A program made the position numbers and the translations under genes. Below the pieces are notes generated by a model. The model saw nothing but the letters and a program-made list of their open reading frames with translations. It had not been told where the DNA came from and did not search any database. From an uncultured Flavobacteriales bacterium (GTDB lineage: Bacteria > Bacteroidota > Bacteroidia > Flavobacteriales > UBA7430), in NCBI GenBank assembly GCA_913041775.1, contig CAJWJW010000002.1, positions 1 through 34,637 of the forward strand: DNA of 34,637 nt, given 5' to 3'. Numbering within the stretch: position 1 is the stretch's first letter; each line of letters opens with the position of its first letter. Positions 20,000 to 25,365 of this stretch are shown here, in pieces.

Positions 20000-21285
20000 A
20001 AAAAGCTCATTATTTTACTACTTTATTAAATTGATATCCTCTATTTCGGCAGAAAGCTTATATTCCCGTTACATTATTAGACAAATAAAACTTAAGAATT
20101 ATTACACTGCACTGCTACGTGTTCTTAAATGGATGGCTGTTTCTAAGCCCACCACGGTAATGTTTCAGTTCTACTTATCTTTTCTAACTTAGCCTTCATT
20201 TAGGGGCCTTAATATGAGGTGAGAGCTGTTTCTCTCTTGACTACCAAGCTTATCCCCAATAGTCTGTCTGCTGATAAATTTATAGGTATTCGGAGTTTCT
20301 CTCTGTTTAGTAAAGTTTATCACCACCCGCACAGAACGAGTGCTCTACCCCCTATAAATTATTGTTATATCACGCTCTACTTAAATAGATTTCGCAAAAA
20401 ACTAGCTATATCCACGTTTGATTAAACTTTCATCCCTAGCCACAGGTCATCCCAAAGCATTGCTACGCTTACGGGTTCAGTCTTCCATTCCTTTGTTACA
20501 GAACTTCAACTTGCCCATGGCTCGATCACGTGGTTTCGAGTCTTAAGAAAAGAACTAAATGGTTTATTTCATCCGCGATTTCTCTACGCCTACATTTCTC
20601 AAAATTTAAGCTCGCTCTTTTCCTAAACTTGCTGACCCATCATGCAAAAGGTACGCCGTTACATCTAAATATTATGCTCCGACTGCTTGTAAATATTAAA
20701 TTTCAGGTTCTATTTCACTCCGCTTTTGGTATAATAATTAATTATACCTCAGGTCTTTTTCACCTTTCCCTCACGGTACTTGTACGCTATCGGTTATTAA
20801 GGAGTATTTAGGCTTAGAGGTCTAGTCCCTCTTTCTTCAGGCAGAATTTCACGTGCTCCACCTTACTTTATTCATTAAAAATTAACAAAATTACTATTGA
20901 ACTTCATTCCAGACACAGGGCTTTCACCTTCTAAGGCATGCTTTTCCAAACATTTACCGAATTTATCAAAGAGTAATTTTTTATTAATGAGATTGCCTAA
21001 TTCCGCAGTCGCTCGCCACTACTTACGGAATCTCGGTTGATGTTTATTCCTAGAGTTACTTAGATGTTTCAGTTCACTCCGTTATAATAAATACATTAAC
21101 TGTATTTAATCCATTATGGATAATGTTTTCATCTTAAGGAAATCCGTAGATCATTAGTGGTATTGTTACCTTCACTATAGCTATTTTCAATAATGTAAAA
21201 TTATTTAGCACGGCTTTTCGTATTATTAAACGTCCTTTTCTCTTAATACCTAGGCTTCCATTTAATATTCTTATTTTTTTATATT
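20000..21285 (-). rRNA. rnl: Large-subunit rRNA, 5' piece (about E. coli 23S positions 1-1170; ends approximate)
   Basis: Minus strand contains GGAAGCCTAGGTATTAAGAGAAAAGGACGT (5' end region), GGAGTGAACTGAAACATCTAAGTAAC, AGTACCGTGAGGGAAAGGTGAAAAAGACC, GGCTTAGAAACAGCCATCCATTTAAG and ATGTAACGGGAATATAAGC, in the 23S domain I-II order. Similarity stops about 30-70 nt before the rpl5 start. Confidence 0.9.
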
Positions 21286-21311
21286 TTATTTTAGGAAACT
21301 TTTTAAATAAT

Positions 21312-21384
21312 AGCCAAATGTCAGAATTGAACTGACGACTTGAGACTTACAAAATCTCCACTCTACCAACTGAGTTAATTTGGC
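21312..21384 (-). tRNA. trnT(ugu): tRNA-Thr (UGU)
   Basis: Minus strand: GCCAAAT-TA-ACTC..GAGT-G-GAGAT-TTTGTAA-GTCTC-AAGTC-GTCAG-TTCAATT-CTGAC-ATTTGGC. Confidence 0.9.
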
Positions 21385-21401
21385 TAATGACTTTCAAATT
21401 T

Positions 21402-21473
21402 AACGGGTAGCCGGAATTGAACCGACAGCCTTTGAGTGGAAGTCAAATATTTTACCAATTAAACTATACCCGC
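21402..21473 (-). tRNA. trnG(ucc): tRNA-Gly (UCC)
   Basis: Minus strand: GCGGGTA-TA-GTTT..AAAT-A-TTTGA-CTTCCAC-TCAAA-GGCT-GTCGG-TTCAATT-CCGGC-TACCCGT. Confidence 0.88.
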
Positions 21474-21495
21474 TTTTTTGTTATTTTATGCTACT

Positions 21496-21568
21496 CTCTC
21501 CCGATCGGACTTGAACCAATGACCTCGACGTTAACAGCGTCTCGCTCTACCACCTGAGCTACAAGAGA
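21496..21568 (-). tRNA. trnN(guu): tRNA-Asn (GUU)
   Basis: Minus strand: TCTCTTG-TA-GCTC..GAGC-G-AGACG-CTGTTAA-CGTCG-AGGTC-ATTGG-TTCAAGT-CCGAT-CGGGAGA. Confidence 0.9.
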
Positions 21569-23100: not shown

Positions 23101-23162
23101 TTATTTTAATATATAGTTTTAAGCAACAGAATTTTATTAATACTATAAGTAAGAATATAACG

Positions 23163-23477
23163 TTATTTTTTTTCTTTTCTTTCTTTGTGTACCGTAAGTT
23201 TACGAGTACTAACAAATTCTCCAAAACGGTGACCAATCATATCTTCTACAACTGTAATTGGAATAAACTTCATACCATTGTGTACTTGAAAATTAAGCCC
23301 AACGAATTCCGGAAGAATTGTTGAACGACGTGACCAGATATGCCGTTTTCAAACTTTCATAACTTTATTATCTGTTGAATTGTTTTCATTTAAAGAGTTT
23401 TTGATTTCTGTATTTACTTGAGTTGCTAGACGGATTAAAGATCCATCTAAAAAAGGTCCTTTTTTTAAAGATCGCAT
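23163..23477 (-). CDS. rps19: Ribosomal protein S19
   Basis: ATG 23475-23477 to TAA 23163-23165. [15 protein letters not shown]...[52 protein letters not shown] matches the S19 signature (KGPF, TWSR.S.I.P, V.NG, MVGHK.GEF..TR). Not in the track because of an internal TGA. Confidence 0.9.
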
Positions 23478-23524
23478 TATAAATTATTTTTATGTTATCA
23501 AACTTTTGATTTCACTGCATAAAA

Positions 23525-23608
23525 AGGAAAGGTGGCTGAGTGGTTTAAAGCGACGCTTTGCTAAGGCGTTATATGATAAATATCGTGGGTTCAAATCCCA
23601 TTCTTTCC
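23525..23608 (+). tRNA. trnS(gcu): tRNA-Ser (GCU), long variable arm
   Basis: GGAAAGG-TG-GCTG..., anticodon arm ACGCT-TTGCTAA-GGCGT, long variable arm, T arm GTGGG-TTCAAAT-CCCAT, acceptor 3' TCTTTCC; 84 nt. Confidence 0.88.
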
Positions 23609-23669
23609 TCTGTTAAAAAATAGCATCTCCCAGCCCTTTTAAAAGCCTTCTTTCGCTTAAAGACGCACA

Positions 23670-25365
23670 TGATTTTTATTTTTTTTAGCTATTTTAGTAC
23701 TTCATCGGAGGTTCTTACAAACTATATCCAATCAGCCTAACCACATTTTTTCTCTAAAATGTTATTCAAAAAGAAGCCATAAAGTAACCTTCGGGCTTGA
23801 GATGCTTTCAGCCCTTATGTTTGATGAAGGTAGCTTGTGGACAATGCTGGAGGCCCAACAATCCACTAACCAGAGCTTCACTCAAGTCGTTCTTCTCATA
23901 CTAGACTCAAATCTTTTTTCTTTTTCATGCCTATAGTAGGTAGAAACCAAACTATTTCACAATGTTCTGAACCCAACTCACGTAACGCCTTAGAGGGCGA
24001 ACAGCCCTACCCTTCCTAGCTGCTTCACCAGGAGGATGCGTTGAGTCGACATCGAGGTCGCAAACCCGGACTTCAATATGAACTCTCAATCCGGATTACG
24101 CTGTTATCCCCGGCGTACCTTTTATCTTGTAAGCGATCACCTTTCCATAAAGAATGACCTGATCACTATAAACGAATATATAAAATATTCCCTGCTCGAC
24201 CTATCGGTCTTACAGTCTAGCGAGCTTTTTTGCTATTGTACTCTAAAATTGGATAATAACCAACCTGAGCTCACCTATAAACCTCCGTTACTCTTTGGGA
24301 GGTTGCCGCCCCAGCCAAACTACCAAGCTTATAATGTCCTCTTCTCTAAAGTATTTAAAAATACCAATAGAAATATAACCAGTTAAAATATGTCTACAAC
24401 ATATATGTACGAATACATCTGGTCTCTACTAACAGAGTGAGCTTTAGTATGGAATGGAGTGGTATTTCAAGAATGTCTAAGCAATGATCTAGCGACCAGG
24501 CTTCATCAACTCCCACTTATCCTATATCATTCCGATACTTTAGCAATATAAACCTATAGTAAAGGTGCACGGGGTCTTTTCGCCTAACTATAGGAAAACC
24601 GCATCTTCACGGCCAATTCAATTTCACTGAGTCTACATTGGAGACAGCCAAAGAGTCGTTACACCATTCATGCAGGACGGAACTTACCCGCCAAGGAATT
24701 TCGCTACCTTAGGACCGTTATAGTTACAGCCGATGTTTACTGGTACTTTAGATCGTCGCCCGAAAGCGGAAATCTATAATAGCCAAGCACTGATCAGGTG
24801 TCAGACACTATACATAGAATTTGCATCTTTGCAGTGTCCTGTGTTTTTGATAAACAGTCGCTCTTTGCTATTCTGTGCCATCTTAATAAAGCCTACAATA
24901 TTACAAGAATATTGCGGTTCTCTATACTAAGACATTCCTTCTCCCGAAGTTACAGAATCATTTTGCCGAGTTCCTTCAATGTAGTTGTCTCAATCACCTT
25001 AGCATACTAATGCTAGTCTACCATTTTCGGTTTGAGGTACGGTATTTTTTTTCTACTTGTTTCTTGAATGTAATTATAAATAAAAAGCAATCCAATTAGC
25101 GTTTCATTTATCATATACACTGTCATATAGAAAAAGACGAGGAATTTTATTAAACTCTCGTACCCATTATACATTTCTATCGAAATAATACTTAGGGGCC
25201 GTCTTACTTTAAGCGGATCATCCGTGCTTAAAAAACCTTAGACTTTCGGTGACGATGGTTTTCACATCGTTTATCGTTACTCATGTCAGCATTCTCACTA
25301 GCCATTAAACATCTAAGATTTTCATCTTAAACTAATTAAAAGGCTACGTTTTGCTACCATATCAT
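23670..25365 (-). rRNA. rnl: Large-subunit rRNA, 3' piece (about E. coli 23S positions 1180-2900; ends approximate)
   Basis: Minus strand contains, in order: GGTAGCAAAACGTAGCC, GAGAATGCTGACATGAGTAACGATAAA, GACTGTTTATCAAAAACACAGG, ACGGTCCTAAGGTAGCGAAATTCCTTGGCGGGTAAGTTCCGTCCTGCATGAATGG, GGGGATAACAGCGTAATCC (peptidyl-transferase region), GCTGAAAGCATCTCAAG and GATGAAGTACTAAAATAGC (3' end region). Confidence 0.92.

Follow-up and report, generated by a model that had tools for sequence, protein, structure and literature searches.

The gene for the large-subunit (LSU) ribosomal RNA (rRNA), rnl, is split into two pieces that are encoded out of order in a contig of 34,637 nucleotides (nt) from a picozoan mitochondrial genome (CAJWJW010000002.1 of assembly GCA_913041775.1, deposited under the name of a Flavobacteriales bacterium). 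The whole of this stretch is referred to here as the window. The piece encoding the 3' part of the rRNA (3' piece) is located 2.4 kb upstream of the piece encoding the 5' part (5' piece), and both are on the minus strand. This split, out-of-order arrangement, originally predicted from the letters of the window, is confirmed here. The two halves are probably co-transcribed, released separately and assembled non-covalently (see below).

Two complementary parts of the LSU rRNA

A scan with Rfam at the gathering threshold finds two LSU rRNA matches in the whole window, both on the minus strand, at 23680-25340 (733 bits) and 19920-21284 (620 bits). The E-values of these matches to the Rfam LSU models are about 1e-200. 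The model ranges tabulated for them are uninformative because the hits are glocal, and the alignments were read instead. The downstream (5') piece aligns to the RF02541 model from position 1 to about 1204, and its last well-aligned residues are ...AAUGUAACGGGAAUAUAAGCUUUCUGCCGAAAUAGAGG. The upstream (3') piece, when searched alone, is reported as model 1069-2925 and 5'-truncated; its real alignment starts with GGUAGCAAAACGUAGCC and reaches the 3' end of the model.

The conserved core of the 5' piece contains domain I and domain II as far as the base of helix 45, including the 5' strand of helix 36. The core of the 3' piece contains the 3' strand of helix 36, helix 46, the end of domain II, and domains III-VI to the 3' end of 23S rRNA. 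There is no overlap between the pieces, each part of the rRNA is encoded once, no core domain is missing, and the coverage of E. coli 23S rRNA is near-complete. Placement of both intervals with a covariance model had been suggested together with the original prediction, and the Rfam alignments put them on complementary, non-overlapping parts of 23S rRNA. As the two intervals align to different halves of the LSU model, they are not a duplication, an alternative that had been raised at the same time.

The predicted limits of the pieces require some revision. The 3' piece had been placed at 25365 to 23670 and assigned domains III-VI. Its location is correct, but it starts at about E. coli 1186, so that ~85 nt from the end of domain II still belong to it, comprising helix 46 and the 3' strands of helices 36 and 26. 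Because the 3' piece keeps these closing strands of domain II, the split is near the end of this domain and not between domains. For the 5' piece, placed at 21285 to 20000, the piece and its strand are right, while the core ends at 20038, the conserved tail continues to about 20025, and rpl5 starts at 19972. The order of the pieces, with the 3' piece upstream on the same strand and genes in between, was recovered with Rfam, ARAGORN and Pfam. All of the intervening genes named in the prediction (trnS(gcu) on the plus strand; rps19, nad4, trnN, trnG and trnT on the minus strand) are found where they had been placed (Table 1).

The break is located in helix 45

The sequence of E. coli rrlH was aligned to the two window pieces joined in silico. 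The ...GAGG of the window aligns with E. coli 1160-1163, and GGUAGC... aligns from 1186 on. The sole discontinuity replaces E. coli 1164-1185 (CAGCGACGCUUAUGCGUUGUUG), which we take to be the helix 45 hairpin in the standard helix numbering. The break had been predicted to lie in a variable region, and it can now be mapped to this helix. It falls in a variable hairpin that is a documented site of intervening sequences (IVSs) and fragmentation, outside the conserved core.

The joined pieces align to E. coli 23S rRNA over 2,778 columns. Apart from helix 45, three stretches of domain III are absent, of 22-35 nt each. With a length of ~2.95 kb, the joined rnl corresponds to a near full-size, bacteria-like rRNA.

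The split is present in other assemblies and in relatives

The cox1 of the window is 90% identical over 518 amino acids, including an unusual N-terminal extension, to that of Picozoa sp. SAG11 in EukProt, and named non-picozoan cox1 sequences are at most 74% identical to it. Based on this match, therefore, the window is the mitochondrial genome of an uncultured marine protist that belongs to the Picozoa.

Related contigs (given here with L numbers) were gathered through searches with nad4, rps12 and orf143. Named relatives show at most 64% identity to nad4 of the window, and environmental relatives show 74-100%. Contigs L344, L345 and L347, from two Tara samples and one other sample, have both rnl pieces 100% identical to those of the window and in the same order. 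L006 is 99.9% identical to the window across nad4-trnN-trnG-trnT-5' piece. L346 represents the population of the window, with an additional 1.34 kb insertion in the 3' piece that carries an open reading frame (ORF) for a LAGLIDADG protein. The gene order of the window is also found in L086 (as well as in L010 and L087), with an rRNA identity of 87-89%.

In L001 (also in L002 and L007), the segments trnE-3' piece and trnN-trnG-trnT-5' piece-rpl5 are kept and the split is retained. About 4 kb is added here between the pieces, with rpl6, nad3, orf115, trnW, trnS and an extra ORF beside rps19-nad4. The distance between the two rnl halves is 2.4-6.4 kb among the window and its relatives. L005 and L040 (nad4 ~76% identical) are heavily rearranged, with atp9 located before the 5' piece and nad4 convergent with the 5' piece. 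Even in these two contigs, rnl remains split and its 3' piece precedes the 5' piece on the same strand. The L005-type locus ends inside the 3' piece, and the start of this piece is outside the locus.

Within 10 kb of nad4, rnl was not found in L018, L020, L022, L029, L035 and L044 (nad4 ~77% and 72% identical), where rns or transfer RNA (tRNA) genes are present. A scan of genome and viral contigs with the 14-mer AATGTAACGGGAAT gave, among the matches listed, only chance ones, none of them rnl-like with respect to the window. A longer, degenerate rnl pattern had no match in the viral contigs.

These contigs bear directly on whether the split is an artefact of assembly, that is, whether a chimeric or mis-joined metagenomic contig hides a contiguous rnl. 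The window seems to be a short-read metagenome assembly (the identical nad4, P0001, is sourced solely from ENA), and the related contig L348 resembles a chimera of strains. However, the junctions trnE-3' piece, 3' piece-trnS-rps19, trnT-5' piece and 5' piece-rpl5 recur in assemblies from at least 10 other samples, produced with different assemblers. Three of the recurring assemblies are sequence-identical and several are from different species, and a contiguous rnl is found in none of the assemblies among the relatives. Misassembly had been named as the main danger to the original prediction; the recurrence of the junctions in L344, L345 and L347 (100%), in L006 (99.9%), and in the divergent L086, L001, L010, L005 and L040 leaves it a negligible probability. 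At least four divergent types of picozoan genome share the split arrangement by inheritance. Judged from these comparisons, the split is older than the divergence of these lineages.

Region 2550-3900 of L348 (Tara) is 99.4% window-like over the 5' piece and is followed by an L086-type tail and rpl5, so this contig is either an assembly chimera or a natural recombinant. In the window and L086 types, the block rpl6-nad3-orf115-trnW (window 27683-29086) is located past rps4 and on the other strand. The same block is on the same strand and between the rnl pieces in L001 (6023-7511), which indicates an inversion or transposition among close relatives.

The closed genome and selection on the two pieces

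Scaffold L350 (40.5 kb, Tara) aligns first with window 22448-34637 and, after a gap of just 1,392 nt (L350:12192-13583), with window 1-6849. As L350 bridges the two ends of the window, the genome is circular-mapping with a size of ~36.0 kb (about 36,029 bp), of which the window covers 96%. This segment of 1,392 nt consists of the 3'-terminal 590 nt of rns, a spacer, and the beginning of a LAGLIDADG ORF. It is free of LSU sequence, and the closed genome of ~36.0 kb has no intact copy of rnl. In the window, rns is present with its 5' 941 positions and runs off the right end; with L350 this gene is contiguous over its full length (model 1-1533). Thus rnl alone is split and rns is intact.

Selection was estimated from an alignment of the window and L086 over a colinear region of 6.7 kb. 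The identity is 90.4% for the core of the 3' piece and 87.2% for the core of the 5' piece, compared to 39-47% for intergenic spacers and 57-66% for third codon positions. By this measure, both rnl pieces are under strong purifying selection and are conserved as functional rRNA. Conservation of the 3' piece climbs at ~25390-25380 in its leader, is 0.9-1.0 over 25380-25359, and falls after ~23685. Conservation of the 5' piece climbs at ~21285-21290 and lasts to ~20025 in its tail; the rest of the tail is a spacer of poor conservation (~0.4) until the start of rpl5. These edges mark the likely ends of the two rnl pieces.

It could be supposed that the pieces are decaying remnants, and that the working LSU rRNA comes from another mitochondrial chromosome or from an imported nuclear copy. 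The window falls short of the complete genome, and metagenomic data leave room for extra replicons. The circle closes at ~36.0 kb, however, with no LSU sequence in the part outside the window, and both pieces are much more conserved than spacers or synonymous sites. Moreover, their content is that of a near-complete bacterial-type 23S rRNA, with no overlap and with the helix 45 loop as the only gap. We know of no precedent for the import of a full-length LSU rRNA into mitochondria. This explanation is extremely improbable.

Possible splicing or joining of the two transcripts

The two transcripts might also be joined into a colinear rRNA after transcription, by trans-splicing of a split group I/II intron or by intron-independent joining. 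The pieces are exactly complementary in content, and the sequence alone is compatible with ligation. Both mechanisms have precedents in mitochondrial rnl (PMC3873408 and PMC3936708). In addition, relatives of the window have insertions bearing LAGLIDADG elsewhere in the 3' piece, a sign that intron biology is active in rnl.

The flanks of the pieces are too short for intron halves, however, as the leader of 47 nt is bounded by trnE and the tail of 65 nt by the AUG of rpl5. The spacer past the short conserved strands is unconserved (0.4-0.6). Permissive searches with Rfam gave no group I/II intron match in 19000-26000 (E <= 5) or in 19600-20420 (E <= 1). Introns of rRNA and ligated junctions are argued to sit in the conserved core (PMC2996981), whereas the break interrupts a variable hairpin loop, one that in bacteria can stay permanently broken. 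With the break at such a nick-tolerant position, covalent joining is unlikely. A Diplonema-like, intron-free reaction in a lineage allied to Archaeplastida is very unlikely. If it did occur here, intron-independent trans-joining of rRNA would be wider than a single euglenozoan group.

Intron-sized LAGLIDADG insertions are present at three sites of the 3' piece in relatives (equivalent to window ~24705-24714, ~23960 and ~24054; Table 1), and there are none in the window. Since the exons of L346 match the window at 99.5-100% identity, presence of the insertion varies within a single population. The insertions of L001, L005 and L346 all fell short of the Rfam threshold for group I introns.

Proposed pairing between the two halves

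According to the Rfam consensus structure, UUUUGC in the 5' piece (20394-20399) and GCAAAA in the 3' piece (25349-25354) form the 6 perfect base pairs of helix 36. In this structural model, helix 36 must form in trans between the two pieces. Both of its strands are invariant among the genome types compared.

A residual helix 45 stem in trans is plausible as well. The tail AUAUCA-A-UUUAAU (20037-20025) of the 5' piece is complementary to the leader AUUAAA-ACA-UGAUAU (25373-25359) of the 3' piece, with about 6 + 6 base pairs. Cofolding recovers this two-segment helix in the window and in L086, and the conservation between these two extends exactly across both of the proposed strands. An alignment of six leaders was used for the comparison, and both strands are available in three genome types. 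The strands in L086 are AUAUCG/UGAUAU and UUUAAA/UUUAAA, with one double change of U-A to A-U and one change of A-U to G-U. The proximal segment in L001 is AUAUA/UAUAU, with a change of C-G to A-U. The lengths of the tail and the leader co-vary, and both are longer in L001. These one or two putative compensatory changes are only suggestive of covariation, because the helix is short and AT-rich, three types are compared, and the register in L001 is ambiguous.

All three genome types (window; leaders of L086, L001 and L091) share a conserved motif of 10 nt, AGCAUAAAAY (~25377-25386, minus strand), in the 3' piece leader, in spite of varying surroundings and length. This motif could serve as a signal for processing or could mark the true 5' end.

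Probable processing, assembly and origin

The arrangement is best described as a discontinuous, scrambled rnl, and its halves are most probably co-transcribed, released as separate RNAs, and assembled without a covalent link. Analogous systems and the lack of intron features give good support to the non-covalent nature of the assembly. Co-transcription is plausible as both pieces are in one minus-strand block. Both halves would be made from one polycistronic precursor, covering rps4-trnF-rps12-trnE-[3' piece]-rps19-nad4-trnN-trnG-trnT-[5' piece]-rpl5, and a single precursor would yield them in equal amounts. Excision of trnE and trnT by RNase P/Z would form the 5' ends of the two RNAs. Further cuts in the poorly conserved spacers past ~23685 and ~20025 would form their 3' ends. 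The two RNAs would stay unjoined and would associate during ribosome assembly through long-range helices of 23S rRNA that are now intermolecular (helix 36 and the residual helix 45). Tertiary and protein contacts would strengthen this association. Bacterial 23S rRNAs that are broken at helix 45 by IVS removal function likewise.

A same-strand tRNA gene just 5' of each piece had been noted in the original prediction, and tRNA-punctuated release had been proposed from it. The tRNA genes are indeed there (trnE 47 nt and trnT 26 nt upstream), as they are in the L001 and L086 types. The proposed release can account for the 5' ends of the pieces. It does not account for the 3' ends, because these abut rpl5 and the antisense trnS, or for the 5' piece of L005. 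Judged from the gene positions, tRNA punctuation is at most part of the processing mechanism.

With regard to the origin of the split, a processed break in helix 45 would have been tolerated first. Next, tandem duplication of rnl and its neighbors with reciprocal loss, or transposition of one half, would have produced the order 3' piece-genes-5' piece. Same-orientation similarity of the 5' piece tail to the 3' piece leader was considered as a footprint of duplication and rejected, as Smith-Waterman alignment was no better than for shuffled sequences in the three types.

Several points weigh against this description. That the RNAs are separate and stable, where exactly they end, and that they stay unligated are inferences from DNA. 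Neither 3' end is flanked by a same-strand tRNA, and the 5' piece of L005 is preceded by atp9, with no tRNA in between. The pairing energy of the trans helix 45 is no better than that of shuffled sequences (RNAduplex and cofold, three genome types; the fraction of shuffles at or below the observed value is 0.2-0.7). This helix is short and AT-rich, and L001 shows an ambiguous register and no evident distal segment. For helix 1, the 5' end of the 5' piece would have to pair with the 3'-terminal part of the 3' piece; both are A-rich, and no convincing pairing is therefore visible. Finally, the scenario for the origin, by duplication and loss or by transposition, has no direct footprint.

Some short environmental contigs have ends near the piece boundaries. 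L011 and L012 (~1.9-2.0 kb) span rps19-nad4 and end at the nad4 stop codon and the antisense trnS, and L092-L096 span rps4-rps12 and end near trnE. If these contigs are metatranscriptomic, they would be processed messenger RNAs with ends that match the boundaries of the rRNA pieces, which is suggestive only.

Neighboring and intervening genes

The coordinates of the rnl pieces and the genes around them are given in Table 1. The minus-strand block from rps4 (27635) to trnM (19082) is broken solely by the plus-strand trnS. Its linkage rps4-trnF-rps12-trnE-3' piece is kept in L001, L086, L087 and L344, and the position of trnE before the 3' piece is kept in L001, L086, L087, L090 and L091. The trnN-trnG-trnT cluster is also present in L001, L002 and L086, and the 5' piece is adjacent to rpl5 in L001, L010 and L086 as well. 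Between the rnl pieces, nad4 shows, by its identity to L086 at the three codon positions (0.90/0.97/0.64), the pattern of a functional gene under purifying selection.

Table 1. Coordinates of the rnl pieces, their neighbors, and the LAGLIDADG insertions in related contigs (window positions unless a contig is named).
Feature	Position	Strand	Size or location	Remarks
rnl 3' piece, conserved core	23680..25358	minus	~1.68 kb	RF02541 model ~1228-2925; start motif GGUAGCAAAACG at 25358
rnl 5' piece, conserved core	20038..21284	minus	~1.25 kb	RF02541 model 1 to ~1204; end motif CCGAAAUAGAGG at 20038
3' piece leader (trnE to core)	25359..25405	minus	47 nt	last 15 nt (25359-25373), proposed 3' strand of trans helix 45
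5' piece tail (to rpl5 start codon)	19973..20037	minus	65 nt	first 13 nt (20025-20037), proposed 5' strand of trans helix 45
rps4	25965-27635	minus		with trnF and rps12 opens 8.6 kb same-strand block holding both rnl pieces
rps12	25477-25845	minus	upstream of trnE
trnE(uuc)	25406-25477	minus	47 nt upstream of 3' piece core	ARAGORN, Rfam tRNA
trnS(gcu)	23526-23610	plus	69 nt past 3' piece end	97.6% conserved with L086
rps19	23163-23477	minus	between pieces	Pfam Ribosomal_S19, E = 1.2e-24
nad4	21637-23100	minus	between pieces	homology search
trnN(guu)	21496-21568	minus		ARAGORN, Rfam
trnG(ucc)	21401-21474	minus		ARAGORN, Rfam
trnT(ugu)	21311-21385	minus	26 nt upstream of 5' piece core	ARAGORN, Rfam
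rpl5	19238-19972	minus	directly after 5' piece, 65 nt past core	Pfam Ribosomal_L5_C, E = 1.1e-22
LAGLIDADG insertion	L001:3108-4836		1.7 kb
LAGLIDADG insertions	L005:~10827-11390 and ~9017-10059
LAGLIDADG insertion	L346:49-1388

Other features of the genome

The genetic code of the window has UGA as a codon for Trp. A trnW(uca) is present at 29014-29086, and there are many in-frame TGA codons, 14 of them in cox3 alone. ARAGORN labels trnW(uca) as tRNA-SeC, and translation with table 11 truncates most of the genes. The Rfam scan finds 24 tRNAs in the window. Three of the tRNA genes have a CAU anticodon (811-884, 898-974 and 19082-19154), presumably for initiator Met, elongator Met and lysidine-modified Ile. 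A 5S rRNA gene was not detected in the window together with the sequence of the gap from L350.

Three ORFs have no Pfam match and keep their positions in relatives: orf299 (994-1893, minus strand), orf115 (28676-29023, plus strand) and orf143 (32447-32878, plus strand). The amino-acid identity of orf115 in relatives is 45-48%, and orf143 is identical on at least 23 contigs. These ORFs may be divergent ribosomal protein genes, with orf143 located where rps11 might be expected. The rps4 gene (25965-27635, minus strand) has an N-terminal extension of ~330 residues and a weak match to the S4 domain. The atp6 and nad1 genes (13340-14713 and 29584-30858, both on the plus strand) have N-terminal extensions of ~200 and ~100 residues, respectively.

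A free-standing LAGLIDADG_2 ORF of 290 residues (window 2-691, plus strand; complete in L350:13402-14274) is located between the end of rns and trnV, outside any recognizable gene or intron. Among the more distant contigs, L029 (nad4 76% identical) has a match to a group II intron domain adjoining rns (5796-5869). L046 (nad4 62% identical) has a match to a permuted transfer-messenger RNA (14603-14687), as in jakobid-like or alphaproteobacterial genomes.

Significance for Picozoa

The first picozoan mitochondrial genome, MG202007 of Picozoa sp. MS584-11, was reportedly published by Janouskovec et al. in 2017. Four complete or near-complete genomes were added by Schon et al. in 2021 (PMC8599508). 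No mention of a split rnl in Picozoa was found in the literature searched, which left out the 2017 mitochondrial genome paper and the image of Supplementary Fig. 9 of Schon et al. 2021, so that an earlier annotation is possible. The chances appear evenly balanced that Picozoa as a clade share the helix 45 split with its reversed order of pieces, as a trait that has not been described before.

If it is such a trait, two halves encoded in the wrong order are enough to build a mitoribosomal LSU rRNA of near-bacterial size. The single break is at the helix where bacterial 23S rRNAs are naturally nicked, which supports the view of helix 45 as a universally permissive site. It also supports constructive neutral evolution, in which rearrangement can separate and reorder the two halves at no cost once a break is tolerated in the RNA. 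The split outlasts extensive changes in gene order and could mark picozoan mitochondrial contigs in metagenomes. Annotators should be aware that rnl may be reported as truncated or duplicated by automated tools. As Picozoa are an uncultured group, the split rnl is among the few features of mitochondrial expression that can be predicted for them and checked in existing ocean metatranscriptomes.

Comparison with known systems

The closest parallels in gene arrangement are found in placozoans (Trichoplax and relatives) and in oysters, which like the window have a single break and two rnl pieces separated by functional genes (PMC2996981, PMC1781491). The break in both of these groups is in a variable region, with no flanking intron features, as in the window. 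In placozoans the pieces are also on the same strand and the rRNA has a near-bacterial structure. The two pieces of oyster (Crassostrea) rnl are not ligated, as established by reverse transcription PCR and expressed sequence tags, and the same study argues that breaks fall in variable regions and introns in conserved ones (PMC2996981). The positions of the breaks differ, however. The placozoan break is after E. coli 1013, and the oyster break is between domains II and IV with domain III deleted, whereas that of the window is in helix 45 (1164-1185). No conserved helix linking the fragments was described for the oyster, while a short residual helix 45 stem is plausible in the window. The placozoan and oyster hosts are unrelated to Picozoa, which are allied to Archaeplastida.

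The closest parallel in the position of the break is the IVS in helix 45 of bacterial 23S rRNA (Salmonella, Campylobacter, Coxiella and Leptospira). Its excision in Coxiella leaves unligated fragments of ~1.2 kb (F1) and ~1.7 kb (F2) in working ribosomes (PMC4990558), compared to 1.25 and 1.7 kb in the window. In contrast to the window, where the halves are separate and reordered with genes in between, the bacterial gene is contiguous and colinear, and RNase III cuts the IVS stem-loop from one precursor. The bacterial IVS has a long inverted-repeat stem, and the window has a complementarity of only ~12 base pairs (6 + 6).

Pieces that are out of order and interspersed with genes are also known from Chlamydomonas (chlorophycean), ciliates, apicomplexans and dinoflagellates, and these assemble non-covalently (PMC8660880, PMC3382252). 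Those systems have many small pieces, often of both rRNAs, in highly derived, gene-poor genomes. The window differs from them in having one break, a joined length of ~2.95 kb, an intact rns, and a genome rich in ribosomal protein genes. The rnl of Prasinoderma coloniale (with group I introns) and the modules of Diplonema are likewise in separate genomic pieces. However, the pieces in these two are covalently joined, and Prasinoderma has recognizable intron halves at conserved sites, of which the window has none. The split rnl described here is thus a clean further example of a known oddity, discontinuous organellar rRNA, and not a new kind of biology.

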